Origin: Candidatus Zambryskiibacteriota bacterium | Lineage (GTDB): Bacteria > Patescibacteriota > Minisyncoccia > Phycocordibacterales > DATDWN01 | DNA length: 64,000 bases | Reading direction: 5' to 3' | Assembly: GCA_003173855.1 (NCBI GenBank) | Contig: PPGI01000008.1 | Coordinates: forward strand, 10,119-74,118 | The notes under the pieces: model-generated | What the model was told of the DNA's origin: nothing | Database searches by the model: none | The model's input: the letters and a program-made list of their open reading frames with translations, nothing else | Position numbers and translations under genes: made by a program | In this document: positions 1,508-57,837 of the stretch, piece after piece | How positions within the stretch are numbered: the first letter of the stretch is position 1 | Layout of the letters: each line of letters starts with the position of its first letter

Positions 1508-3649
1508 ATGAATCGCGACTACACATTAGAAAAAGTCAGAAATTTCGGAATTATTGCCCATATTGATGCTGGTAAAACGACGACTTCAGAACGTGTGCTT
1601 TTTTATACTGGAATGACTCACAAAATCGGAGAAGTGCACGAAGGTGAAACTGTTACTGATTGGATGGAGCAGGAGCGAGAGCGAGGCATCACCATTACGG
1701 CTGCTGCCATTACTTGTTTTTGGAATCCGACCTATATGGCAAAGGGGGCAAAGCCAGAATACCGATTTAATATTATTGATACTCCTGGACACATCGACTT
1801 TACTGCTGAAGTAAAGAGATCACTCCGAGTTCTTGACGGTGCTGTTGTAGTTTTTGATGGAGTTGCGGGAGTTGAACCACAATCAGAAACTAACTGGCGA
1901 TATGCCGATGACGGGAATGTGCCTCGAATTTGTTTTATTAACAAACTTGATCGTACAGGAGCTTCATTTGAAAGATCATATGCTTCGATTCTCGATCGTC
2001 TTACAAAAAATGCTGTCCGAGTTCAAATTCCGATTGGCCTAGAAGACAAACACGAAGGAGTGATTGATCTTTTGAAAATGAAAGCTTTTTATTTTGAGGG
2101 AAATATGGGAATGGCAATTCGCGAAGCAGAAATTCCACCAGAACTTGTTGATGATGCTAAAAAATTCCGAGGAGAATTGATTGAAAAAATTGTCGAACAA
2201 GATGACAGCTTAATGTCTGCATATCTTGAAGGCAAGGAACCAACTTTGGATGAATTAAAAACAACCCTTCGCAAGGCAACTCTTGCAGTAAAACTTGTAC
2301 CAGTTTTTGCAGGTAGTGCTTTAAAAAATAAAGGAGTTCAGCTTGTGCTCGATGGTGTTGTTGATTATCTACCTTCTCCACTTGATATTCCTCCAGTTCA
2401 CGGTATTGATCCGAAAACAGGTGAAGAAATTTTCCGTTCTGCCTCTGACACTGAGCCTTTCTCAGCTTTGGCATTCAAACTTCAGAATGATCCATTCGTC
2501 GGACAATTAACTTTCTTTAGAGTTTATTCTGGAACAATTGAAGCAGGTACTTATGTATATAACGCAACTACAAGTGAAAAAGAACGCCTTGGACGTATTG
2601 TTAGATTGCAAGCTGACAAGCGAGAAGAAGTGAAAAAAGTTTTTGCAGGAGAAATTGCTGCCGCTGTCGGATTAAAATCAGCAAAGACATCTCACACACT
2701 TTGTGATGAAAATAATCCAATTATTTTGGATCCGATTAAATTCGTTGATCCAGTTGTCTCTCTTAGAATTGAGCCAAAAACAAAAGCCGACCAGGAAAAA
2801 ATGGGTATGGCTTTGAAAAAACTTTCTGACGAAGATCCAACTTTTAAAATTTCTTCAAACTCTGACACAGGCGAGTCAATTATTTCTGGAATGGGTGAAT
2901 TACACTTGGAAATCATGGTTGATCGAATGAAGCGCGAATTCGGCGTTGAAGTAAATGTTGGCAAACCTCAAGTTGCATATCGTGAGACAATTCTTGGAAC
3001 TGCTGATGCAGAAAATAAGTACATCAAGCAAACTGGTGGAAAAGGCCAATATGGTCACGTAAAGATTACTCTTAAGCCAATGGAAAAACTGGAGGAAGGT
3101 GCAAAAATTCCTAAAAATGTTAAACGCTATGAAGATTTTGAATTCATTGATTCGATTAAAGGAGGTGTTATTCCACAAGAATTTATTCCAGCAGTTGAAA
3201 AGGGAGTTCATGAAGCAATGGATCGTGGAATTGTGGCTGGATACAAAATGGTCAATGTTTCTTGTGAACTGACTTTCGGTTCATATCATGATGTCGACTC
3301 ATCTGAAATCGCTTACAAAATTGCAGCTTCTCAGGCTTTCCAAGATGCAGCAAAGCGAGCAAAACCTGTTATTTTAGAGCCTATTATGAAAGTTGAAGCA
3401 GTTATGCCAGAGCAATTCATGGGAGATGTTACCGGTTCACTTTCAGGAAAGCGCGGACAAATCGAAGGAATGGATGAGAGGGGAATGCTTCGCGTAATTC
3501 ATGCAAAAGTTCCGCTTTCTGAAATGTTTGGATACACAACTGATATTCGATCAATGACACAAGGACGCGGTTCGGTGATGATGGAGTTTGATCATTACGA
3601 AGTGGTGCCATCTAACGTTGAGAAGCAAATTGTAGAGTCACGGAAATAA
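1508..3649 (+). CDS. fusA: Elongation factor G
   Basis: 713 aa; GTP-binding motifs AHIDAGKTT, DTPGH, NKLD; EF-G domain order. Confidence 0.97.
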   Translation: MNRDYTLEKVRNFGIIAHIDAGKTTTSERVLFYTGMTHKIGEVHEGETVTDWMEQERERGITITAAAITCFWNPTYMAKGAKPEYRFNIIDTPGHIDFTAEVKRSLRVLDGAVVVFDGVAGVEPQSETNWRYADDGNVPRICFINKLDRTGASFERSYASILDRLTKNAVRVQIPIGLEDKHEGVIDLLKMKAFYFEGNMGMAIREAEIPPELVDDAKKFRGELIEKIVEQDDSLMSAYLEGKEPTLDELKTTLRKATLAVKLVPVFAGSALKNKGVQLVLDGVVDYLPSPLDIPPVHGIDPKTGEEIFRSASDTEPFSALAFKLQNDPFVGQLTFFRVYSGTIEAGTYVYNATTSEKERLGRIVRLQADKREEVKKVFAGEIAAAVGLKSAKTSHTLCDENNPIILDPIKFVDPVVSLRIEPKTKADQEKMGMALKKLSDEDPTFKISSNSDTGESIISGMGELHLEIMVDRMKREFGVEVNVGKPQVAYRETILGTADAENKYIKQTGGKGQYGHVKITLKPMEKLEEGAKIPKNVKRYEDFEFIDSIKGGVIPQEFIPAVEKGVHEAMDRGIVAGYKMVNVSCELTFGSYHDVDSSEIAYKIAASQAFQDAAKRAKPVILEPIMKVEAVMPEQFMGDVTGSLSGKRGQIEGMDERGMLRVIHAKVPLSEMFGYTTDIRSMTQGRGSVMMEFDHYEVVPSNVEKQIVESRK

Positions 3650-3818
3650 TTTCTTACTCACTGCATTTCTCGAAGAGACCGTTTCGCTCCGCCAGCGCTA
3701 CGCTCACTAGTTCTCGGCTTTCCGACTTGTCAATGAGCCAGCAAGCTGGACGTTGACAAGACCGAGCTCTCGGCCTGCGAAGTCTCTCCTCGAAACGCAG
3801 TTCGACGAAATTATTTTC
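3642..3818 (+). repeat. GC-rich palindromic MITE-like repeat, copy A (terminal inverted repeats (TIRs) overlap the fusA stop codon)
   Basis: ~95% identical to the reverse complement of 51752..51920. The outer TIRs (gaaataatttc...gaaattattttc) bracket a GC-rich core (3667..3795) containing nested palindromes (ccgagagctcgg; cttgtcaa...ttgacaag). Confidence 0.65.
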
Positions 3819-3899: not shown

Positions 3900-5132
3900 A
3901 TGAGTACTTCTGTTGCCGAACAAGGTGTCGGTAGAAAAGATAATTATTTAGATATTTTGCATAGGCAGGCTGATGGCCCAGAGTACAAAATTCCTATTAA
4001 GAAAATTGATTTTCGTACGTTACGCAAGCCGACAGATATTGATCCTTTACCTCAAGAAAAAGAAGCCATATCTCCAGAAGAGAAATCAGGAGTAATTTTT
4101 GAAAGTACAGTTTCAAGTCAAAGTTATAAAACACCAAACAAATTAATTGAATATATAAATATTTTAATAAAAGAGAATAGACCTCTCAAAGGTCTGCGGT
4201 GGGATATAGAAGAAGCAAAGTCGCTTGATGAAATAGTCAGTCGACTAACAAAAACAAATTTATTGTCGAAAGAAGAATGTGATGAAGCTATTTCATGCTG
4301 CCAATATCCCAATAAAGAAATTAAATTACATGTTGCATATACTGATCCACATCATGAAAGCACAGATCTGACTTTAGCAAGAAAAGAATACGTTGAAGCA
4401 CTCGTTCCATATTTAAAGAAACTTGAAGAGAAAAAAATTTCTTATCGAAAATTGATGCAAGGTCTCGGTGCTCAAAAAGACATGCCTTTGCCAGGTGAAC
4501 CCAAGGAGCTTGTTAATGCACGAAATGATTATTATAAGGCTAGGAATAAAGATAAAAAATCAAGTGGCCAAATTGAAAAAATCTACGATATCATGGAAGT
4601 TTCAAATCTTCGCCAAGAGATTCTCGCTCTCCAAAGTGAAAGGACGCAAATCTTTATTGATAGAGCAAATAAAAAATGGGAAAAAATTTCAAGAATTGAT
4701 AATGTAAATGTTCTCACAGCATTACTTAGCGATCTAACTTTTTTGTCATATGTTCCTCCAAAAGATGAAAATTATGTTGGTCTTCGTCCAGAAAAAATAA
4801 ATATTCAAGAAGTTATAGAAGAAAAACCTGTTGAAACCAAATCAGAAGTAGTAGAAGAAAAACAAGAGCCAAAGGCAGATCATGCTATTCAGATTTCAAA
4901 TCTGACATTTGATGACAAACCTCTTCAAGTTATTCTAAATACAGATGCCGAACCACAAACTATTCAAGTAATATTTAATGATAATGAAATTGCTTCTGGT
5001 ACGTTGACAAGGAAGGGGCCAAGTATTAAAGTTCATTCCCGTTATAAAGCAGGATTCCTATTGGCAAAGACCATGGAAGAAAAAGCTTTTGAAAACGCGA
5101 ATTCTCTTATAATCAAGAATTTCAAAATCTAA
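3900..5132 (+). CDS. Hypothetical 410-aa cytoplasmic protein inserted between fusA and tuf
   Basis: Long ORF with no transmembrane segment or known motif; coiled-coil-like segment (EILALQSERTQIFIDRANKKWEK). Confidence 0.55.
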   Translation: MSTSVAEQGVGRKDNYLDILHRQADGPEYKIPIKKIDFRTLRKPTDIDPLPQEKEAISPEEKSGVIFESTVSSQSYKTPNKLIEYINILIKENRPLKGLRWDIEEAKSLDEIVSRLTKTNLLSKEECDEAISCCQYPNKEIKLHVAYTDPHHESTDLTLARKEYVEALVPYLKKLEEKKISYRKLMQGLGAQKDMPLPGEPKELVNARNDYYKARNKDKKSSGQIEKIYDIMEVSNLRQEILALQSERTQIFIDRANKKWEKISRIDNVNVLTALLSDLTFLSYVPPKDENYVGLRPEKINIQEVIEEKPVETKSEVVEEKQEPKADHAIQISNLTFDDKPLQVILNTDAEPQTIQVIFNDNEIASGTLTRKGPSIKVHSRYKAGFLLAKTMEEKAFENANSLIIKNFKI

Positions 5133-5597: not shown

Positions 5598-6794
5598 ATG
5601 GCTGAGTTCGATCGTTCAAAGCCACATGTGAATGTGGGAACAATTGGTCACGTTGACCACGGTAAGACAACATTAACAGCAGCAATTTTGACTGTACTTG
5701 GACGCGCAGGCCAAGGCTTCGGCGCAAAAGTAAAAGGAGTTGATCAAATTGACTCTGCTCCTGAAGAAAAAGCACGAGGAATTACTATCGCGCTTTCTCA
5801 CAATGAGTACGAGACACCTACAAGACACTACGCTCACGTAGATGCTCCTGGACACGCTGACTATATTAAAAACATGATCACTGGTGCCGCTCAGATGGAC
5901 GGTGCAGTATTGGTAGTTGCCGCAACAGACGGTGTTATGCCTCAAACACGAGAGCACGTACTTTTGGCAAAACAAGTTGGTGTGCCAAAGATTATCGTTT
6001 TCCTAAACAAATGCGATATGGTGCCTGACAAAGAACTCATTGATTTGGTTGAGGAGGAAGTTCGAGAGCTCCTTACAAAACAAGGTTTCGATGGTGCAGG
6101 TGCTCCAGTTATTCGAGGTTCAGGTCTTAAAGCTCTTGAGTCAAAAGACAATAATGACGAATGGGCAGCAAAAATTCTAGAACTTGCAAACGCATTGGAT
6201 ACTTATTTCCCAATTCCAGAGAGAGATCTTGAAAAGCCATTCCTTATGCCAGTTGAAGACATTTTCTCAATCGAAGGACGAGGAACTGTGGTAACTGGAA
6301 GAATTGAACGAGGAATCGTAAAAGTTGGTGAAGAAGTAGAGTGTATTGGTTTGAAAGATACAGCAAAATACACTGTTACTGGTATTGAAATGTTCAACAA
6401 ATCACTTCAAGAAGGCCAGGCTGGAGACAACGCTGGAATTCTTCTTCGAGGTGCTAAAAAAGAAGACATTCATCGAGGACAAGTTTTGGCAAAGCCAAAG
6501 ACTGTAACTCCTCACACAGAATTTATGGCAGAAGTTTACATTCTAAAGAAAGAAGAAGGTGGACGACACACAGCATTCGTTACAGGTTACAAACCACAAT
6601 TCTACATTCGAACTACAGACGTAACAGGAGAAGTTTCTCTAAACGAAGGTGTTGAAATGGTTATGCCAGGAGACACAGTTACTTTCAAAGTTAAACTTGT
6701 TGCTCCAGTTGCTCTAGAAGAGAAGACTCGATTTGCGATCCGCGAGGGTGGTAAGACAGTCGGCGCAGGAGTTGTAACAAAAATCCTCGCTTAG
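5598..6794 (+). CDS. tuf: Elongation factor Tu
   Basis: 398 aa; [18 protein letters not shown] motifs. Confidence 0.98.
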
Positions 6795-6920
6795 TAAACT
6801 TCCAAATTTAGCGATCTCCTTGTTTCGAGTTTGAAAATGTTCGTCACTTTACTACTTGTAAAGCTTCTCACATTTTCAAACTCTCAACTTCGGATCTCAT
6901 CTAAATTCTGAAAGTTTAGA
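6795..6920 (+). repeat. Conserved ~125-nt structured 3'-UTR element, copy M1 (begins TAAACTTCCAAATTT at the tuf stop codon)
   Basis: Alignable to the element after rplB (11088..11210). Central hairpin ctttac-tactt-gtaaag (6847..6863) shows compensatory changes relative to ccttac/gtaagg in the other copies. Confidence 0.55.
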
Positions 6921-6947: not shown

Positions 6948-7022
6948 CCTTACAGGGACTGTACACCTTTCGCACATAACAGTGCTCAAGGTCTTGCGAA
7001 GCTTCGCTTCTCACGCCTAACA

Positions 7023-7051
7023 TTGCATTCAAAATTGAAATTTTTTATAAT
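7023..7051 (+). promoter_or_regulatory. Promoter TTGCAT-N17-TATAAT driving a GC-rich non-coding unit
   Basis: Consensus -35 and -10 with a 17-nt spacer. No ORF >=60 aa in 6795..7378. Confidence 0.5.
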
Positions 7052-7057
7052 ACTAAA

Positions 7058-7338
7058 TGGAGCAGTCGACACACAACCACGCTGAAGTAAGCGAAACGGC
7101 ACTATGAAACGAGATCTCGGCCTCCGGAAGTTTCAAGCCAGCAAAGCGTGTGTGGGAGAGCAGCGAATCTGCTCGTTACATACCTCACAGTAGGCACGCA
7201 CCCCATGTGTCGGGGACTCGTTGAGAGCCGCAGTAGTGACTTCTCCATCGTCCGCATCGGTAGAAAACCAAATCGGTTTCTCCGAGGCGGTTTTCTTTTA
7301 TACTTTACCCCGTACTGAGCTTTGCTCTAGTACTGGGG
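7058..7338 (+). ncRNA. Candidate structured non-coding RNA (~280 nt, GC ~55%) between tuf and rpsJ
   Basis: GC-rich island in an AT-rich genome, with no ORF. It has its own consensus promoter and ends in a hairpin (ccccgtact...agtactgggg, 7308..7338). Identity unknown; it did not match my recall of RNase P, SRP or 6S RNAs. Confidence 0.3.
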
Positions 7339-10250: not shown

Positions 10251-11090
10251 ATGAAAAGATACCGACCAACATCAAAATCACGCCGACAGATGACAACCAT
10301 TTCATTTGGTGATTTCATTACCACAAATGACCCAGTCAAGTCATTGACTCATGGCTATAAACGACAAATGGGCCGAAGTCATGGTGAAATAACTACTCGA
10401 CACAAAGGAGGCGGTCACAAGAGACTTTTCCGCGAAGTTGATTTTCTATACGACAAAATAAATATTCCTTACACAATCAAAACTGTTGAATACGACCCAA
10501 ACCGATCAGGTTTTATCGGACTTGCTCAATATGCTGATGGTGAAAAAAGATATGTTCTTGTTCCTCGAGGAATTAAAGTAGGGGAAACATTTTTAACTAG
10601 TGAAACTGCTGAACCAAAAACTGGAAATCGATTGCCTCTAAAAAACATAAATATTGGTACTTTTGTTTACAACGTAGAAATAAAACCAAATGGCGGAGCT
10701 AAACTTGCTCGATCTGCCGGAAACTATATTGAAGTTATTGCTAAAGATGGAGGAATGATTGATCTAAAAATGCCTTCAACTGAAGTTCGCAAAGTTCCAG
10801 AAACAGCTTGGGCATCTATCGGTGATGTTTCAAACAACGAAAACAGATTGGTAAATCTTGGTAAAGCTGGACGTTCACGATGGCTTGGAATCAGGCCTAC
10901 AGTTCGCGGTACAGCAATGAACCCTGTTGATCACAAATACGGTGGAGGAGAAGGCCGTCAGGGAAGAGGAACAAGACGTGCGATTTCTATTTATGGTAAG
11001 CCAACAGGTAAGGGTCAGAAGTCTAGAACTCCTAAGAAGTATTCGAATAAGTTTATTGTTTCTCGCCGACGCGTTGGCAAGCAACGCTAA
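10251..11090 (+). CDS. rplB: 50S ribosomal protein L2
   Basis: 279 aa; conserved L2 C-terminal region (GGGEGRQGRG...). Confidence 0.96.
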   Translation: MKRYRPTSKSRRQMTTISFGDFITTNDPVKSLTHGYKRQMGRSHGEITTRHKGGGHKRLFREVDFLYDKINIPYTIKTVEYDPNRSGFIGLAQYADGEKRYVLVPRGIKVGETFLTSETAEPKTGNRLPLKNINIGTFVYNVEIKPNGGAKLARSAGNYIEVIAKDGGMIDLKMPSTEVRKVPETAWASIGDVSNNENRLVNLGKAGRSRWLGIRPTVRGTAMNPVDHKYGGGEGRQGRGTRRAISIYGKPTGKGQKSRTPKKYSNKFIVSRRRVGKQR

Positions 11091-11210
11091 ACTTCCAAAT
11101 TTGGCGAACTCCTCGTTACCAAATTAAAAATACTCGTCACCTTACATTTGTAAGGCTCCTCGCATTTTTATTTCTCACGTCGGATTTCATCCAAATCTGA
11201 TAATTTTAGG
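11088..11210 (+). repeat. Conserved structured 3'-UTR element, copy M2 (TAAACTTCCAAATTT overlaps the rplB stop)
   Basis: Alignable to 6795..6920; contains hairpin ccttac-attt-gtaagg at 11140..11155. Confidence 0.55.
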
Positions 11211-11258
11211 GCGACCAAATCGGTCGCCTTTGACATTTAAAATTTTTTGTGATTAAAT
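11209..11258 (+). promoter_or_regulatory. Terminator/promoter module: hairpin GGGCGACC..GGTCGCC, then TTGACA-N17-TTAAAT
   Basis: Hairpin 11209..11228; TTGACA 11230..11235; -10 at 11253..11258; GAGGAG SD before the ATG at 11278. Confidence 0.55.
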
Positions 11259-11568: not shown

Positions 11569-11574
11569 TGTGTA

Positions 11575-11624
11575 GGGCGGCAAAGTAGCCGCCCTTTGAC
11601 ATTTAAAAAATGAAGAATAGAGTT
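11575..11624 (+). promoter_or_regulatory. Terminator/promoter module: hairpin GGGCGGC..GCCGCCC, then TTGACA-N16-TAGAGT
   Basis: Hairpin 11575..11594; TTGACA 11596..11601; AAAGGAG SD before the ATG at 11660. Confidence 0.5.
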
Positions 11625-12012: not shown

Positions 12013-12062
12013 GGCGGCGAATTGCGCCGCCCTTTGACATTTATAGGCAATTTGTATAGTAT
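12013..12062 (+). promoter_or_regulatory. Terminator/promoter module: hairpin GGGCGGCG..CGCCGCCC, then TTGACA-N17-TAGTAT
   Basis: Hairpin 12013..12033; TTGACA 12034..12039; TAGTAT 12057..12062. Confidence 0.55.
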
Positions 12063-22596: not shown

Positions 22597-23010
22597 ATGT
22601 ACAATTGGGCAATGTTAAGAAAGCCGCTTTTTAGATCAGCTTTTGGTCTTTTACTTGTTATTTGGGCAATATTTATTATTGGCTATGAATTTTCATTAAA
22701 TTACTTTTTTTGGTGGTACGATTGCATTTTACATTTTCTTTCTGGTGGTTGTGTAGCAATGGGAACTATTTGGCTATGGGATTATTTTTTTCCGACAAAC
22801 AATAAACACAAATTAATTCTCGTTGGATTTATCGGCACTTTAATAGTTGGCCTTATTTGGGAAATTTTTGAAATTCATTACGGTTTAACATTTTTATCTG
22901 ACGGCATTATATATATTAGAGATACCGCTTCAGATTTATTGTTAGACGTTTGCGGAGGATATTTTGCAACGCTTTATTCGTTTAAAATTTTATTTAAAAA
23001 TGTTAAGTAA
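22597..23010 (+). CDS. Small 4-transmembrane protein, VanZ-like (tentative); start uncertain (22576, 22597 or 22612)
   Basis: Hydrophobic; D-x3-HF and D-x3-G motifs reminiscent of the VanZ family. Confidence 0.4.
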   Translation: MYNWAMLRKPLFRSAFGLLLVIWAIFIIGYEFSLNYFFWWYDCILHFLSGGCVAMGTIWLWDYFFPTNNKHKLILVGFIGTLIVGLIWEIFEIHYGLTFLSDGIIYIRDTASDLLLDVCGGYFATLYSFKILFKNVK

Positions 23011-24379
23011 AGAATTACAGCTAACTTTTTTTTCTGGCGTTGGGACAGTCACAGGTGCAAATTTTTTGCTTGAGACAATTTCGACTGGAATTTTAGTGGA
23101 TTGTGGTTTAACTCAGGGAACAGAAGAAGCAACAAAATTAAATCACGAACCATTTGGTTACGATCCGAAAATTGTGGATTTTCTTTTTATTACTCATGCT
23201 CATATGGATCATATTGGCCGAGTGCCGAAACTCGTTCATGACGGATTTTCTGGAACAATTTATTCAACTCCCGAAACAAAACAAATTTCAGAACTAATGT
23301 TTGCCGATGCTCTGAAAATCATGAATTCAAAGGAAAAAGAATTTAGTGATGGTACGCGAGAAAAACCTCTGTACGATGAAAATGATGTAAATCAAACGAT
23401 GTCACTTTGGAAAACCATTCCGTATCACGAATCTACAAAACTAAATGATGAGTTTGTAGTAAATTTATTGGATGCGGGTCATATTTTAGGCTCATCAATG
23501 ATCGAGTTTACATTCAATGGCAAAAAGATAACTTTTACAGGGGATAGTGGCAATTCGCCATCACCTTTACTTCGCGACACAGAAGCTATTACAAATACTG
23601 ATTACCTCATAATGGACAGTGTTTATGGAGACAGAAATCACGAGCCAAAAAAAGAAAGAGATGCAAAATTTAGGGAAATAGTAAGACAGTCAATTCAAGC
23701 CGGGGGCGCTCTAGTTATCCCTGCATTTTCGGTTGAGAGAACTCAAGTCATTCTTTATGAATTAAATAATTTGGTTGAACATGGCCAGATTCCAAAAGTG
23801 CCAATATTTCTCGACTCTCCTTTAGGTTCAAAAGTGACAGAAATTTATCGCGAAACTTATCGTGATTTTAATAGCGAAGCTCAAGGGCAAATCAAATCTG
23901 GTGATGATTTGTTTGATTTCCCAAAACTCTCCATCACTCATTCATCTCGCGAATCAAAAGACATCGAAAATACTCCAAATCCAAAAATAATCATCGCAGG
24001 ATCAGGCATGTCATCTGGCGGGCGAGTAGTCGGGCATGAAATAGCATTCCTGCCGGATCCTCGCAGTACAATTTTAATCGCCGGATACCAAGCACCAGGA
24101 ACGCTGGGTAAGCAAATCGAAGAAAAACCAAAAGAAATTGAAATAAATGGTGAAATTATTCCAGTTCGAGCAAAAATCGAGACAATTTCAGGCTATTCTT
24201 CTCACAAAGATTCAGATAACTTAGTCAAAATGGCGTCTGATACAGCTAAAACTGTTAAGAAAGTTTTTGTCGTAATGGGAGAACCCAAATCATCACAGTA
24301 TCTAGCTCAACGACTTCGTGACGAATTAAATGTTGATGCAATTGTTCCCGAACGCGCTAAGCCATACAAACTTTCATAG
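23000..24379 (+). CDS. Metallo-beta-lactamase-fold beta-CASP ribonuclease (RNase J/CPSF-like)
   Basis: HxHxDH motif (THAHMDH); ~460 aa; beta-CASP-like C-terminal half. Confidence 0.75.
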   Translation: MLSKELQLTFFSGVGTVTGANFLLETISTGILVDCGLTQGTEEATKLNHEPFGYDPKIVDFLFITHAHMDHIGRVPKLVHDGFSGTIYSTPETKQISELMFADALKIMNSKEKEFSDGTREKPLYDENDVNQTMSLWKTIPYHESTKLNDEFVVNLLDAGHILGSSMIEFTFNGKKITFTGDSGNSPSPLLRDTEAITNTDYLIMDSVYGDRNHEPKKERDAKFREIVRQSIQAGGALVIPAFSVERTQVILYELNNLVEHGQIPKVPIFLDSPLGSKVTEIYRETYRDFNSEAQGQIKSGDDLFDFPKLSITHSSRESKDIENTPNPKIIIAGSGMSSGGRVVGHEIAFLPDPRSTILIAGYQAPGTLGKQIEEKPKEIEINGEIIPVRAKIETISGYSSHKDSDNLVKMASDTAKTVKKVFVVMGEPKSSQYLAQRLRDELNVDAIVPERAKPYKLS

Positions 24380-24435
24380 TTGGCACATCCCACTATTTAC
24401 CTTTCCGCCTAGAACATCCAACTATGAAAGTTTGT
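24366..24435 (+). terminator. Perfect 18-bp inverted repeat (acaaactttcatagttgg / ccaactatgaaagtttgt) with a 34-nt loop, spanning the RNase stop codon
   Basis: Seen directly in the sequence; followed by a T-rich tract. Confidence 0.5.
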
Positions 24436-28058: not shown

Positions 28059-28068
28059 TTTGTATTTG

Positions 28069-28451
28069 TGGAGATGGTGGTATCGAAACCACGTCCATAT
28101 ATAGAATTGAAACGAATCTACAGTGCTTAGGATATTTAATTGTTTAAAACACAAAGCTTAGAACAGCCAAAATACTTTGTATTCGAGTTCCTATTTTTCG
28201 GAAGTTTCCGGAACAAGGAACTTCTATAACCTCAATTTATATCAATCAACTTCTCGTATGAGATATGAGAGAAGCGACCGTCCCTTAGGCTAAAGCGTAA
28301 GAGAAAGTATAGGCTCCGTAAGGAGAAACTACACCCTTAGACAAGTTTTTTACACTTAATCTTTCCAAACCGTTTTAGGAGAATTTGGTGCTCCGCATTG
28401 CACGTATCAATGTCGAATATATGTCAAAACCTGTCATCCCCGCTCTTTGTA
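28069..28451 (-). ncRNA. ssrA: tmRNA (ssrA), ~383 nt
   Basis: 5' GGGGAUG pairs with 3' CAUCUCC, including the G3:U70 pair that marks alanine charging. tRNA-like T-arm (GUGG-UUUCGAUA-CCAC); discriminator A; CCA not encoded. Internal tag reading frame GCC UAU ACU UUC UCU UAC GCU UUA GCC UAA (AYTFSYALA*) at 28285..28314. Adjacent to smpB. Confidence 0.75.
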
Positions 28452-28688
28452 CGCGACTACAGAAAGTGCCACATATAAATTATTTCTTTTATTTTTGTGT
28501 TTACTGCACTAACAATTTCGTGTCCAAAGAGCGGGGCAGGCCCCTACAATAAACCTCGTTGAACTATGACTTTTTCAGCATCGCGGAGTGCATGAAGCAC
28601 GAGCGCGAGGAAAATTTTTAGCAAAAAATTATTCCGGTGATGAAAAAGTTATGGTGAAAAAGAGATTTACTCTAGGCCGAATCAGGTT

Positions 28689-36756: not shown

Positions 36757-38143
36757 TTAATATTGAGAACTCCACTGTGCGGTTAGATTTCCAATACCAT
36801 TGTCGGCTACAACTTTAATTGAGATTATATCTCCTGCACTAAATGCAACATTGTGTGTTACATCTGAACAAGAACTTGCTCCGCTAGTGATTGTACACGT
36901 TACAGGCTGACTTACGCCATTTTTATCAACAGTGAACACGATATTTTTACCAGAGCCGCCGACATTAGAACTCAATCTCACAAAGAAGTTCTTTATTGTT
37001 CCTGCAACTGGCATTGCTACTTGCTCTGAGCTTTCAGTTGTTGAATTACTTCCAACAAATGTGCCCATGTATGTTGTAGCATTAGCTTGAACGCTTGCAC
37101 CACTGCCTCCACCTATAAATGAGATTCCGTTAGTTCCATTTATACCTGGGTTACCTTGTATTCCTTGGATACCCTGTATACCTTGAGAACCAGTGTCACC
37201 CTTATCTCCCTTTACACCCTGAATACCTTGGATGCCCTGTATTCCTTGATCTCCTTTATCACCCTTTGGACCAATAAGTGATGTTAACCATTGAGTTACA
37301 GTGCCACCAAAACTATTATCAACAGCAACTTGGTAAGCACTTTTTCCATCAACACCAGTGTCTCCTTTGTCTCCTTTATCACCCTTATCACCTTGAATTC
37401 CTTGTATTCCTTGATCTCCTTTGTCTCCTTTTAAGCCTTGTGGACCTTGAGAACCAGTATCACCTTTATCTCCCTTTGGACCTTGTGGACCAGTATCGCC
37501 GGTATCTCCCTTCAAACCTTGTGGGCCTGGTACACCTTGAATACCTTGTTCTCCTTTTTCACCTTGTTGACCAGTTTCTCCTTGGATTCCTTGCTCACCT
37601 TGAGCACCAGTCTCTCCTTTTTCACCCTGAACTCCTTGAATACCCTGATCTCCTTTGTCACCTTTATCTCCCTTTGGACCTTGGATTCCTTGTTGACCTT
37701 GTGGACCAGCAGGACCTATTGGACCTACATCACCTTGAGCACCTATAGGACCAGCAGCTCCCGTATCTCCTTTAGGACCTTGATCTCCGGTATCACCCTT
37801 GTCTCCTTTTTCTCCATTAGTTCCGTTTGTTCCAGGATCCCCCTTTGGACCTTGTGGACCAACTGAACCTTGTATACCTTGTGGACCTTGAGCACCAGTC
37901 TCTCCTTTAGGACCCGCAGGGCCTGTGTCACCAGTATCACCCTTTGGACCGGTTGCTCCATCAGCACCATTTTGACCAGCAGGACCGATTGGACCTTGGA
38001 TTCCTTGAATTCCTTGTGGGCCAGCAGGACCTTGAATATTTCCTACATCTTGGAAGTGAGTTAAATCAGTACATACATATAAATGTCCACCAATTAAATA
38101 TCCATCACCAATATTACATGATGAAGGTAGAAGGGAGTATCAT
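36757..38143 (-). pseudogene. Collagen-like (GxY)n protein, C-terminal segment: ~110 GxY triplets, a phage tail-fibre/BclA-like SAYQVAVDNSFGGTVTQWLTSL motif, and a C-terminal globular domain. The frame is open from 38143 with no ATG; it continues the 38094..38627 ORF after a frameshift
   Basis: In-frame GxY repeats traced by eye from 38041 to ~37100. The ORF-track entry 36757..37515 merely starts at an internal TTG. Confidence 0.6.
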
Positions 38144-38627
38144 CAAATGATCCGAGAATTTTTACACTTGTTCCAGCTTCTCCTTTTTCTCCTTGTGGAC
38201 CTTGTGGACCAGCAGGGCCTTGAGCACCTGTTGCACCAGGAGCACCATCAGCACCAGCCGGACCGGTTGAGCCTGTATCTCCTTTATCTCCTTTTGAACC
38301 TTGTATTCCTTGAGCACCTATTGAACCAGCAGGACCTGTGGCACCAGTATTACCAGTGTCACCCTTGTCTCCTTTTTCTCCTTGTGGACCGATAGGACCG
38401 ATTGGACCTTGTGGGCCGATAGGACCAGGAACTCCTTGAATTCCTTGTGGACCTTGTGGACCTGCAGGACCTTGTGGACCAACTGTTGAACCGACACTAA
38501 TAAAAGTATTTCCTGAACCAGTACACTGTGAGGCAGAACTTACAACCGTCACTTTTCCGTTCGGACTTGAAACACAAAGATTAATTGTTGTAGCAGATGC
38601 ATTTGCAAGTGGAATTAATGCAAACAA
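38094..38627 (-). CDS. Collagen-like protein, N-terminal segment (signal peptide + N-domain + ~40 GxY triplets), ending prematurely after a frame change
   Basis: [12 protein letters not shown] signal-like; [16 protein letters not shown]... repeats. The ORF ends in the non-collagen tail ...[24 protein letters not shown], while the GxY frame resumes downstream in another frame. Confidence 0.6.
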
Positions 38628-50479: not shown

Positions 50480-51703
50480 TTATTCGTTAATTACTCGGAG
50501 AACTTCTTCGAGAGTTGTTTGTCCGGACAAAGCTTTGCCTAAGCCATCTTCAAGCATCGTGGTCATTCCTTGTTTCGTTGCCAAGTTTTTTATTTCAGCG
50601 GCTGATGCTTTGCGTAAGATGGCTTCACGTATCACATCATTTGCTACAAGCACTTCGTTAATGCAAATTCTTCCTGAGTATCCGCTTTTGTTGCACTTAT
50701 CACAGCCCTTTCCTTTGTATAAAGTTTCGTCATTATATTTTTTCCCAAGCTGATAAAGAGTTTCTTTCATCGATTTTGTAATTTCGATTTTTTCTTTGCA
50801 GTGAGTGCAAATTTTTCGAACTAGTCTTTGGCCAATTGCAATTGAAACAGTCGAAGCGACTAAATATTCTTCTATGCCCATATCGAGCAAACGGGGAAGA
50901 GTTGTAGCGGCATCATTTGTGTGCAAAGTTGAGAGCAAAAGATGGCCTGTTAGAGCGGTATTTACGGCAATGCCTGCTGTTTCAGAGTCGCGAATTTCAC
51001 CAACCATAATAATATTTGGATCTTGTCGCAGAATTGAACGCAAGCCATTGGCAAATGACAGTCCAGTTTTGGCATTCACTTGGATTTGCTCGATATCAGA
51101 AACTGCATATTCGATAGGATCTTCGATAGTAATAATGGAAACTTCAGGAGAATTAAGCATCTTGATCAAAGTGTAAAGCGTAGTTGTCTTTCCAGAGCCA
51201 GTCGGACCTGTTGCAAGAATCATTCCGCTTGATTTTTTCATTGCTTCTAGAATTTTTTTGCGATCATTTTCTGAAAAACCGAGCATCTCGAGCGTATATT
51301 GTTCCGCTTTGTCAGACAAAAGCCTCAAAACTGCATTTTCACCATGGTAAGTTGGCACAATTGAAACACGAAGATCAACAAATGTTTTTCCATCTGGAAA
51401 AGTATGTCGGAATCTTCCATCTTGAGTAGCTTGATGCTCGTCCGTTCGAAGTTTTGAGAGAACTTTTATGCGAGAAATTATTTCGTTATGAATTGTTTTT
51501 GGAAAAGAAAATGCTTCTTGGAGTACTCCATCGATTCTAAATCGAACTCGAATGTCGTCTAGTCTTGGATCAATGTGAATGTCAGAAACATGAGTCTCGT
51601 GTGCTTTCTCAACTAAATAGTCAACCAGATTGATTATTGAAACATCTTTACCACGTGTAATTTCTTTTTCTAATTTGTCCCATTTTTCCTTAGTAGTTGT
51701 CAT
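50480..51703 (-). CDS. Type IV pilus assembly ATPase, short GspE/PilB family with a tetracysteine motif
   Basis: Walker A GPTGSGKTT, Asp box, His box; CxxC...CxxC. Confidence 0.85.
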   Translation of the reverse strand: MTTTKEKWDKLEKEITRGKDVSIINLVDYLVEKAHETHVSDIHIDPRLDDIRVRFRIDGVLQEAFSFPKTIHNEIISRIKVLSKLRTDEHQATQDGRFRHTFPDGKTFVDLRVSIVPTYHGENAVLRLLSDKAEQYTLEMLGFSENDRKKILEAMKKSSGMILATGPTGSGKTTTLYTLIKMLNSPEVSIITIEDPIEYAVSDIEQIQVNAKTGLSFANGLRSILRQDPNIIMVGEIRDSETAGIAVNTALTGHLLLSTLHTNDAATTLPRLLDMGIEEYLVASTVSIAIGQRLVRKICTHCKEKIEITKSMKETLYQLGKKYNDETLYKGKGCDKCNKSGYSGRICINEVLVANDVIREAILRKASAAEIKNLATKQGMTTMLEDGLGKALSGQTTLEEVLRVINE

Positions 51704-51751
51704 ACTATTATTGGGCGTACTTTACTATACGGTTTTTAAAATAACAAGCTT

Positions 51752-51920
51752 AAATTTCTCTGGTTAGTATGTTTTGAAAAGAGACTTCGCAGGCCGAGAG
51801 CTCGGTCTTGTCAACGTCCAGCTTCGCTGGTTCATTGACAAGTCGGAGAGCCGAGAACTAGTGAGCGTAGCGCTGGCGGAGCGAAACGGTCTCTTGAAAA
51901 ATATACTAACCAGAGAAATT
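51752..51920 (-). repeat. GC-rich palindromic MITE-like repeat, copy B (the right TIR overlaps the stop codon of the SDR gene)
   Basis: Reverse complement ~95% identical to 3642..3818. ~19-bp TIRs (aaatttctctggttagtat / atactaaccagagaaatt). GC-rich core 51781..51895. Confidence 0.65.
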
Positions 51921-52653
51921 ATAAATTCTGTCCTTGGTCAATTGGATAAACGTAGCCGGAAGCCATTGTGATTTCTGACAAATACAAAGCAAGTTTTGCA
52001 AATTGTTCAACCGCTTCTTCATCGCTAATTCGGTATTTAAGAGGGGATTCATCGCGGATTGCCTGCCATTCAATCTTCGAAATATCTTCTGGACGAAGAA
52101 TTGGACCGGGAGCGATGGCGTTTACGAAAATTCCTTTACCTGCGAGTTCTGTGGCCAGAGCTTTGGTCATATTTGCGATCGCAGCTTTGGTTACAACGTA
52201 AGGAAGATAGCCAGAATAAATTTTACCAAGAGATGTTCTGTCAGCCACATTTATAATATGTCCGCCATTTGGCATTATTTTTGATCCAATTTGTGATGGC
52301 CAGAATGTTCCAAAAATATGTGCATCTAAATTTCTCTGCCAATCTTTCTCGCTAATGTTTTCAAATTTAACAGGAGTAAAAACTGAAGCAAGATTAATTA
52401 AAATATCAATTTTTCCAAATTTCTTTTTTATTTCACTAACAGTCTTTTCAACACTCTCGCGATTTGAGACATCGCATTGTATTGCAAGACCCTGAACTTT
52501 ATATTTTTTTGCATTTTTTACAATTTTTTCTGATTCGTGAGCAGAACTTCTATAACTTGTGACAATATTTACTCCATTTTGTGCAAGAACTTCAGCAATT
52601 CTCTGGCCAATTCGCTTTCCACCAGTAATCCAAGCAGTTTTTCCTTTGAGCAT
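51919..52653 (-). CDS. Short-chain dehydrogenase/reductase (SDR) family oxidoreductase
   Basis: TGGKRIG Rossmann motif; catalytic YxxxK (YVVTK). Confidence 0.8.
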   Translation of the reverse strand: MLKGKTAWITGGKRIGQRIAEVLAQNGVNIVTSYRSSAHESEKIVKNAKKYKVQGLAIQCDVSNRESVEKTVSEIKKKFGKIDILINLASVFTPVKFENISEKDWQRNLDAHIFGTFWPSQIGSKIMPNGGHIINVADRTSLGKIYSGYLPYVVTKAAIANMTKALATELAGKGIFVNAIAPGPILRPEDISKIEWQAIRDESPLKYRISDEEAVEQFAKLALYLSEITMASGYVYPIDQGQNL

Positions 52654-53603: not shown

Positions 53604-53635
53604 TTAAAGGGCAGTGGCCTAAGCCATTGCCCTTT
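53604..53635. terminator. Terminator hairpin (aagggcagtggcctaagccattgcccttt)
   Basis: 10-bp stem plus T tail. Confidence 0.55.
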
Positions 53636-53897
53636 GTCTTACTCTGTTACCACCACGACTTGAAATTTCTGCGAGCTTCTCTGGAGTTAGCCTGGCAAAA
53701 CCTCGCCGCTTTGGATGAAGGATATCTTCGTCTTCTATTACGAGATATCTCATAGCAGCACGAAGTGATGACAAGAGGATACGGCGCTTACCCATGACTT
53801 TCACAGTTTCGAAACGTCGTGCTTTCATCAAAATATAAACACCTGTTGTGCTTATTCCCATTTTTCGGGCCGTTTCTGATTGAGTACAAGATCTCAT
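53619..53897 (-). CDS. Helix-turn-helix DNA-binding protein (92 aa), relatively GC-rich
   Basis: SETARKMGISTTGVYILMKARRFETVK is an HTH. Its start overlaps the stop of the upstream AlpA-like ORF (ATGA). Confidence 0.5.
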   Translation of the reverse strand: MRSCTQSETARKMGISTTGVYILMKARRFETVKVMGKRRILLSSLRAAMRYLVIEDEDILHPKRRGFARLTPEKLAEISSRGGNRVRQRAMA

Positions 53898-54103: not shown

Positions 54104-54192
54104 CGGAGACGGATGGATTCGAACCATCGGTGCCTTTTAAGGGGCACACCTCTTTAGCAAAGAGGCACGTTAGACCACTCCGACACGTCTCC
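54104..54192 (-). tRNA. tRNA-Ser (anticodon GCU), type II with a long variable arm
   Basis: Acceptor GGAGACG/CGUCUCC; anticodon stem CCUCU/AGAGG with loop UUGCUAA; 20-nt variable arm; T-arm GAUGG-UUCGAAU-CCAUC; discriminator G. Confidence 0.8.
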
Positions 54193-57693: not shown

Positions 57694-57799
57694 AACTTCG
57701 AAAACTTGCGCATTTCGTTGTTGCAGTTCAATTTTGCTGTTCACCTTACTACAAGTAAGGCTCACTCACAAAATTTCCTGCGCCTAGAACTGCATCCAG
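57694..57799 (+). repeat. Structured intergenic element, copy M4: central hairpin ccttac-tacaa-gtaagg inside nested long-range helices
   Basis: Outer perfect 12-bp inverted repeat acttcgaaaact / agttttcgaagt (57695-57706 with 57787-57798). Inner tgcagttc/gaactgca and gcgca/tgcgc pairings. Central hairpin 57744..57760 matches the M1-M3 family. Confidence 0.55.
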
Positions 57800-57837
57800 T
57801 TTTCGAAGTTCGAGATTGTTATGTTTGACGGAATTTT

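Follow-up and report, generated by a model that had tools for sequence, protein, structure and literature searches.

Two copies of a palindromic element at the ends of unrelated genes

The 64-kb stretch of contig PPGI01000008.1 of a Candidatus Zambryskiibacteriota bacterium analyzed here (hereafter the window) carries two copies, in opposite orientations, of a GC-rich palindromic intergenic element. Copy A (3642..3818, plus strand) lies between fusA (1508-3649), which encodes EF-G, and an open reading frame (ORF) of 410 aa (3900-5132), and copy B (51749..51923, minus strand) lies between an SDR-family gene (51919-52653, minus strand) and a gene for a T2SSE/PilB-like ATPase (50480-51703, minus strand); the covariance model described below recovers them as full elements with 96 bits (E = 1e-27) and 99 bits (E = 1e-28), respectively. 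Each consists of two arms, complementary to each other, that form a closing stem around a core. In copy A, the 5' arm GGAAATAATTTCTTACTCACTGCATTTCTCG (3642..3672) includes the fusA stop TAA (3647-3649), which falls within GGAAATAATTTC, and is followed by a GC-rich core of 115 nt (3673..3787) and the 3' arm CCTCGAAACGCAGTTCGACGAAATTATTTTC (3788..3818), after which comes a T-rich tract. In copy B, taken in the orientation of the element, the 5' arm (51896..51923) includes the SDR stop TAA (51919-51921), and is followed by a core of 116 nt (51780..51895) and the 3' arm (51749..51779); its arms contain a 23-nt inverted repeat that is 96% complementary. An earlier note, made by reading the letters of this DNA, had placed two oppositely oriented copies here and had the outer repeat of each begin on the stop codon of the gene upstream; reading and aligning the sequence, we find both copies in place and, in each, the TAA of the co-oriented upstream gene covered by the 5' arm. 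These stops mark natural C-termini: the fusA product ends in ...ESRK*, just as in its relatives, and the Pfam domain of the SDR protein is complete to position 234/236 of its profile.

The two copies differ strikingly in how their parts compare. In a blastn comparison within the window, the cores are 97.4% identical over 116 nt (E = 1.6e-53), whereas the arms (~28 nt, AT-rich) cannot be aligned with each other save at the outermost ATAATTTCT / GAAATT and at some compensatory positions. Thus, the ~95% identity claimed in the earlier note for the whole element stands for the core alone, and its long terminal inverted repeats exist as self-complementary arms within each copy, the sequence of which is mostly copy-specific. 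The compositional contrast that it had put at ~60% against ~35% G+C is likewise genuine, with measured values of 57% for the core and 38% for the window. The palindromic fold is also well supported: copy A has a predicted energy of -63 kcal/mol on the sense strand (z -4.9) and -81 kcal/mol on the antisense strand (z -6.4), and both copies, on either strand, are more stable than their shuffled counterparts (z -4.9 to -8.3). Neither blastn nor nhmmer nor the covariance model detects a third copy in the window. Near-identical cores flanked by dissimilar arms point to recent copying, or to gene conversion, confined to the core.

A conserved covarying core in a hypervariable closing stem

Across the family delineated below, the element is ~150-180 nt long and adopts overall the form of a single rod-like hairpin. 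Its long, AT-rich closing stem comprises 14-34 bp and has a copy-specific sequence in every member. Outer motifs, 5' AATYTCTTWCTC and 3' YTCRACGARATT, recur in ~9/17 copies, including copy A (as AATTTCTTACTC at 3648-3659 and TTCGACGAAATT at 3801-3812), and enclose a conserved asymmetric internal loop, TTWCTCG on one side vs CTCRAC on the other; as these features recur, the arms are homologous across genomes rather than derived from the respective target sites. An AGAnAC/GUnCU segment closes the core. Within it, P2 is a small hairpin with a covarying stem and a CCAGCG loop (3692..3697 in copy A), which is exact in 12 of the 16 aligned members and shows one substitution in the other four. The distal 8 bp of P3 vary freely by compensation (GGCCUCUA/UAGAGGCC, GACCUGAA/UUCAGGUC, GGUUGAAA/UUUCAACC and others), and beside this helix lies a conserved single-stranded 3' bulge, GAACCNUGCU in most members. 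The apical hairpin P4/P4b (CTTGTCAATGAGCCAGCAAGCTGGACGTTGACAAG at 3726..3760 in copy A) has the form UGUCAAUGAR-CC...GG-ACGUUGACA, or in another notation UGUCAAUGAR...GGACGUUGACA, with a covarying tip of variable length. It carries the blocks TGTCAATGA and GGACGTTGACA, which are invariant in 14 members, all of them recovered through that same pattern, the two others having a variant apex.

In a model-guided alignment, 93.1% of the cells at paired positions can pair and 24 of the 35 pairs have changed on both sides. None of 500 column shuffles comes up to these figures, and sliding the partners by 1-3 columns reduces the paired fraction to 32-49%. Further, 407 of 467 aligned positions in the arms are Watson-Crick pairs, despite the arms differing in sequence among copies. 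Such compensatory evolution of the arms around a conserved covarying core implies selection on a folded nucleic acid and not on transposase-binding ends alone.

The members share no open reading frame, and their apices differ in length by numbers of nucleotides that are not multiples of three. A 65-aa ORF running antisense through copy B is not a gene, as a 1-nt indel between the two copies shifts its frame; a protein search with it gave no candidates. Three more specific proposals were likewise discarded: a K-turn in the apical hairpin, on inspecting the alignments; a start codon within a CCAUGC bulge, since the AUG is present in only 9/16 members; and a loop-bulge pseudoknot, for which there is no covariation. 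Nor do we find it tenable that a mobile core lands in the loops of unrelated, pre-existing hairpins: the arms are of equal length, share the outer motifs across genomes and have undergone compensatory changes at positions that are homologous, their variable part lies inside conserved termini, and the window holds no comparable empty hairpins.

A family confined to Patescibacteria

An nhmmer profile built from the two window cores was the starting query for relatives, and retrieved from Parcubacteria bacterium C7867-006 a core (L010:288-404) that is ~70% identical and is flanked by perfect 22-bp arms of its own. From these three sequences we derived the family pattern TGTCAATGA-N(3-20)-GGACGTTGACA, which upon scanning the GTDB genomes yielded 26 loci; members were verified by nhmmer and a covariance model was then built on 14 of them. 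With this model, 16 full-length cores score 90-131 bits. In all, we count 17 copies (15 members beyond the window pair) at 14 independent sites in the genome of the window and at least six other metagenome-assembled genomes (MAGs), leaving out of the site count one member (L029) truncated at its contig end. The true members are confined to MAGs labeled Parcubacteria, Zambryskibacteria or 'Saccharibacteria'; the remaining matches (Rhizomicrobium, Planctomycetota and others) agree in the pattern itself and nothing else, and are attributable to chance. The window EF-G is 93-94% identical to proteins labeled Minisyncoccia, Parcubacteria, Paceibacterota and Zambryskibacteria, which assigns the window to a MAG of the CPR/Patescibacteria. 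Several genomes have 2-4 copies within a few kb (L010, L018, L021, L028, and L032 together with L035), and there are also deletion derivatives, one without P3-P4 (L010:3884-3997, 20.7 bits) and one reduced to the arms (L010:6083-6164).

An exact 21-mer of the window core has no match in the GTDB genomes, and its four matches in JGI metagenomes are fortuitous, being inside high-GC coding sequences that read DKTELSA; hence, the subfamily of the window is rare. No relatives were found by blastn in phage and plasmid collections or with three core k-mers in viral contigs, where a single match to the family pattern is again a chance one (inside a 1689-aa ORF, 10.6 bits). Rfam 15 offers no match to the window copies or to 11 member loci, be it at the gathering threshold or at E <= 10, and our search of the literature recovered no description of repeats or structured RNAs of this kind in bacteria of the Candidate Phyla Radiation (CPR). 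That the family exists in several genomes is shown by these searches; on balance, we are inclined to regard it as one, not catalogued before, of non-coding intergenic repeats, palindromic and structured, that are dispersed in Patescibacteria (Paceibacteria/Parcubacteria, near Zambryskibacteria).

Placement, selection and turnover

The members are closely tied to gene boundaries. At 11 of the 14 sites, an ORF of the same orientation lies upstream and the element starts at -8 to +22 nt relative to its stop codon (<= 6 nt in most cases), and seven copies end 8-17 nt ahead of the next start codon, thereby filling the intergenic gap and leaving room for a ribosome-binding site only. Between co-directional genes, six copies have the same orientation as the genes and one the opposite, a suggestive but not significant bias. 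The neighbors are unrelated housekeeping genes, including those for EF-G, SDR, UDG, AlaRS, YceG, RpiB, transketolase, a DsbA-like protein and RecJ.

The surroundings of fusA allow a comparison with syntenic relatives, which share the gene order fusA, X, DUF5663 protein, tuf. The gap after fusA is 34-105 nt in four sequenced relatives, all of which lack the element at this site, as against 250 nt in the window; two further gene tables give 67-72 nt. Three of these four (L005, L010 and L012) have an ordinary short terminator in that gap and the fourth (L008) has no hairpin there, whereas the window has the element and no other terminator. The relative without a hairpin furnishes a candidate empty site, GGAAATAA|AATTATTTTT (also given as GGAAATAA|AATTATTTTTATTG), the filled counterpart of which in the window is GGAAATAA[element]AAATTATTTTC (also given as AAATTATTTTCTTG). 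This suggests a plausible single empty site, with insertion at the center of a short AT palindrome containing the stop codon. Upstream in the same region, the relatives have inserted toxin–antitoxin genes (ParE/YafQ, PhdYeFM, HicA) and a Cas2-like gene between the genes for S7 and EF-G (L008:5331-9739 and L005:327-841, rpsG to fusA), where the window has just 387 nt; the str operon is evidently an insertion hotspot in these genomes.

Orthologous copies provide a view of how the elements change in place. Two genomes (L010 and L021) have them both between the HIT and recJ genes and between the RNase H and comEC genes. Their RecJ proteins are 74% identical and the cores of their elements ~80% identical; yet the arms, though almost wholly different, are still fully paired, with compensatory substitutions, one of them A-T to G-C, visible in what can be aligned of them. 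Given that these orthologous arms diverge but pair, the fold appears to be kept by selection at fixed loci. On the P0004 contig both the HIT|recJ and the RNaseH|ComEC sites are empty, as is the RNaseH|ComEC site of L012. Another copy, L035, is a mosaic, resembling L015 in its arms and P2, and L032 and L038 in P3-P4. Taken as comparisons of sequence, these cases together with the deletion derivatives show that particular intergenic sites acquire or lose copies, and that the copies decay by internal deletion and swap modules.

The favored explanation and what weighs against it

The account that we favor, with a confidence slightly above even, is that these elements are intergenic palindromic repeats, structured and dispersed, of a new family comparable in behavior to ERIC, Correia/NEMIS, REP/BIME and BOX. 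Briefly, we propose that they are non-autonomous mobile DNA that spreads, or did so in the past, by a route that leaves no target duplication. The persisting copies would probably be co-transcribed with the flanking housekeeping genes, since the stem starts on or beside a stop codon and reaches almost to the ribosome-binding site that follows. Once transcribed, the element would form a very stable intercistronic hairpin in the mRNA, which might act as a 3'-end barrier or as a processing site, its long perfect duplex being potentially suited to RNase III. Precedents for such effects exist in that the inverted repeats of Correia elements are sites of cleavage by RNase III, and that mRNA levels are altered by ERIC elements, the RNA hairpin of which affects the fate of the mRNA (reviewed in PMC10969869). 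At fusA, the element has probably taken the place of the intrinsic terminator found there in three of the four sequenced relatives.

Several observations weigh against this account. To start with, the window holds two copies only. The target-site duplication that the earlier note had suggested looking for, of 2-10 bp in MITE-type transposons, is seen in none of the 17 copies: when direct repeats are sought up to 8 nt from the ends, the best have a mean length of 4.8 nt, compared with 4.1 +/- 1.1 nt for randomly chosen positions; they have no common offset and the longest are self-complementary arm sequence. A TA or TAA duplication was considered and rejected: copy A would fit as TA|ATTTC...GAAAT|TA, but excision would then destroy the conserved fusA stop codon, and neither copy B nor any of the other 15 fits. 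The autonomous partner envisaged in the same note is equally elusive, there being no transposase or recombinase domain in the window or beside any copy, and no distant pair of terminal motifs that could bound a longer element in the 39 loci and the window (~350 kb). With neither a target duplication nor a transposase partner, it is the presence and absence of copies that argues for mobility. As to the RNA-level effects, a U-tract follows the 3' arm in some members and not in others, which makes a general role as a terminator doubtful. Moreover, the unpaired CCAGCG, GAACCNUGCU and CUGCGGAUG are conserved more strongly than a simple stabilizer hairpin would need; these conserved unpaired motifs hint at a specific ligand.

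It also weighs against this account that the strand on which the element would act is not clear-cut. Consensus folds computed with RNAalifold are nearly equal in energy (-27.4 kcal/mol sense vs -26.8 antisense), single copies are more stable on the antisense strand in 13/15 cases, and transition mismatches in the arms favor antisense G.U by 17 to 6, although the copies are not independent. In the core, a U.G pair in the apical hairpin is kept on the sense strand in 14/14 members, and the rest split 7 to 9; this conserved pair and the 6:1 co-orientation with co-directional flanking genes favor the sense strand. The near-symmetry of the strands can be reconciled with selection that acts on the DNA itself for Watson-Crick complementarity.

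Where, then, does the family stand in relation to the established classes? The earlier note had proposed a MITE (a transposable element of the miniature inverted-repeat kind). MITEs are defined by terminal inverted repeats of >= 10-15 bp common to their copies (PMC11602168). Here, every copy has inverted arms of 14-34 bp, of which only the short outer motifs recur, and that in about half of the copies. Small size, palindromic structure, lack of coding capacity, multiple copies (17, at 14 sites in at least seven genomes) and insertion polymorphism all agree with the proposal; since the target duplication and the transposase partner, both of them defining, were sought and not found, the term MITE is apt in a loose sense only. 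The alternative offered in that note, a REP/BIME-like RNA structure at gene 3' ends, is fully viable.

ERIC/IRU sequences are 127-nt imperfect palindromes that are intergenic and transcribed, often in operons or at 3' ends, with a sequence conserved across species, differing locations and variable copy number; we know of no transposase for them. The Patescibacteria elements resemble them in being non-coding intergenic palindromes on the order of 100-200 nt, variable in location and copy number; however, they show no sequence relation to them and are distinguished by a branched GC-rich core in an AT-rich genome, hypervariable closing stems and occurrence in Patescibacteria. Correia/NEMIS elements, the MITEs of Neisseria, are akin to them as inverted-repeat elements of 100-160 nt with internal-deletion variants, and the co-transcription predicted here would be a further parallel. 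Correia elements possess well-conserved 26-bp terminal inverted repeats and a TA target duplication, in contrast to the copy-specific arms and missing target duplication of the present family. With REP/BIME and REPIN sequences it shares extragenic palindromes at gene 3' ends, the absence of target duplication, compensatory hairpins and a mosaic organization. REP units, however, are 20-40 nt long with conserved ends and a variable spacer; here it is the center, a branched core of 115 nt, that is conserved and the stems that vary, and neither a RAYT nor a Y1-transposase gene is present in the window or the loci. REP hairpins near stop codons reportedly interfere with terminating ribosomes (Liang and Deutscher). 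Finally, the pneumococcal BOX, RUP and SPRITE repeats and the Rickettsia palindromic elements (RPEs) are comparable as small modular or palindromic repeats of compact AT-rich genomes, with several families per genome; they too have no sequence relation to the elements described here, and RPEs also insert in-frame in genes, unlike the copies sampled here, which are strictly intergenic.

Other readings of the same evidence

The readings that follow are not mutually exclusive with the one favored above. The foremost, which we hold to be possible if clearly less probable, is that the core is a structured non-coding RNA or cis-acting module with a sequence-specific function, the copies being gene copies and not transposon copies. 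The copy-specific duplex would then be a processing stem like those around rRNAs, from which RNase III would free a stable ~110-nt RNA that is trans-acting or protein-binding. The level of covariation is typical of functional RNAs; unpaired motifs are near-invariant amid varying stems, and the arms are free in sequence while strictly paired. The adjoining protein gene is no better conserved than the orthologous copies; the 6:1 co-orientation and the lack of room for a promoter of its own fit a dependence on host transcription; and the U.G pair present in 14/14 members points the same way. On the other hand, G.U against A.C comes out about equal by strand (13 vs 26 without that U.G pair), which is unusual for selection on a single strand, and one orthologous pair (L021:4347-4508 and L010:3884-3997) is antisense to both of its neighbors. 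Gain, loss, truncation and recombination are as in selfish repeats, locations differ among related genomes and Rfam has no relative. We would be still more reserved about an extension of this idea, in which the GC-rich ~110-nt three-helix core represents a new Paceibacteria-specific class of structured RNA, a portable intercistronic module that is freed by RNase III from the transcripts of housekeeping genes, binds a dedicated protein or RNA partner via the loops CCAGCG/GAACCNUGCU and borrows the promoters of its hosts; it would amount to a small-RNA gene that is mobile.

A reading at the level of DNA seems doubtful to us. It holds that a folded single strand or cruciform is what a structure-specific recombinase or HUH transposase acts upon, on the model of REP/REPIN with RAYT, palindromic elements derived from IS200/IS605 or integron attC sites, and that the RNA hairpin is a by-product. 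The absence of target-site duplication is as expected of HUH or single-stranded DNA elements, wobble is preferentially tolerated on neither strand and the asymmetric internal loop in the arms recalls the extrahelical features of such substrates. Further, the flanks extend the stem with copy-specific complementary bases (GCA|...|TGC in L035, ACAA|...|TTGT in L015), which suggests insertion at the center of short palindromes, as does the GGAAATAA junction when the fusA site of L008 is set against that of the window. Nevertheless, no RAYT, TnpA or integrase gene lies near any copy. IS200/IS605 elements need a conserved 4-5-nt target at the 5' end, and the flanks here (AAT, TAT, GCA, CAA, AGA, TTA, GAT) show no such tetra- or pentanucleotide; the whole element is one hairpin, rather than having subterminal ones. 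An attC relationship is at odds with the termini AATYTC/GARATT, the absence of core sites (RYYYAAC / GTTRRRY) and of a cassette array from the loci, and the location of the copies beside core housekeeping genes.

That the elements are merely similar, unusually long intrinsic terminators is very unlikely. In its favor, each window copy is the sole terminator-like hairpin between its co-directional neighbors, a T-rich tract comes after copy A and a terminator occupies that position in three of four relatives; however, this genome's usual terminators are short hairpins with a GC clamp, set between runs of A and T, a scan for intrinsic terminators found none at either window copy, where the base of the stem is AT-rich, many members end 8-17 nt from the next start with no U-tract, some are upstream of or antisense to genes, and the conserved, branched 115-nt core would be left unexplained. 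Finally, a segmental duplication or assembly artifact, for which one might cite the mere two copies in the window, can be considered refuted: the resemblance ends precisely where the core does, the genes on either side are unrelated and not duplicated, contrary to the duplicated segment including neighboring genes that the earlier note had raised as an objection, and homologs are found in independent assemblies from other studies.

Other repeats and structured features of the window

The window harbors a second, unrelated family of intergenic palindromic repeats, ~115-120 nt long and AT-richer (TAAACTTCCAAATTT...AAATTCTGAAAGTTTA), with copies on the plus strand at 6793-6915, 11086-11204 and 57694-57803. 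Relatives have copies at loci differing from those of the window (L008:16254-16369; L005:5232-5346, minus strand). These repeats, too, abut stop codons: the TAG of tuf directly precedes one copy, that of a PilM-like ORF precedes another, and the copy at 11086-11204 supplies with its own TAA (11088-11090) the stop of an L2-like ORF. Between tuf and the S10 gene there is a GC-rich, ORF-free tract of ~380 nt (6950-7330), which has no Rfam match and no significant kinship to the element, and at the position of which the relative L005 has small ORFs. The earlier note had seen motifs related to the element at 7085-7150 in this tract, a claim that finds no support in nhmmer (E = 0.29) or in the covariance model (no match at E <= 1).

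A further stop-covering hairpin, a perfect inverted repeat of 18 bp with a 34-nt spacer and unrelated in sequence, is found at 24366-24435, its left arm covering the stop TAG (24377-24379) of a 471-aa ORF (22964-24379). The ribosomal-protein gene cluster contains a repeated terminator-plus-promoter cassette, TAGGGCG(N)...CGCCCTTTGACATTTAAAA, at 11207-11242, 11573-11608 and 12025-12054, in which a GC hairpin leads directly into a TTGACA -35 box. A tmRNA gene (28066-28441, minus strand; Rfam, 106.7 bits) has directly upstream of it a 19-nt inverted repeat that is 89% complementary with a 61-nt spacer (28438-28536). Around 37100-38500 (minus strand), extensive 9-nt-periodic repeats encode collagen-like Gly-X-Y tracts with locally high G+C and a strongly negative GC skew. 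Finally, about 2 kb from copy B, a small ORF with an excisionase-like HTH_17 domain (53619-53897, minus strand) lies beside a tRNA gene (54104-54192, minus strand), and the two may be the remnant of an integrative element.

Implications

Tiny and tightly packed as they are, CPR genomes accommodate at least one family of structured repeats of ~170 nt, which selection apparently maintains, and a second, unrelated repeat family behaves likewise in these genomes. A covariance model and a set of loci now exist for the family, which could also serve as a marker when strains are typed or recombination is sought in MAGs. If the elements are mobile without target duplication or a visible transposase, they would point to an unrecognized route of mobilization in CPR bacteria. 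If it is true that they shape the processing or termination of operon mRNAs, they would be a part of gene regulation in organisms where few regulators are known.

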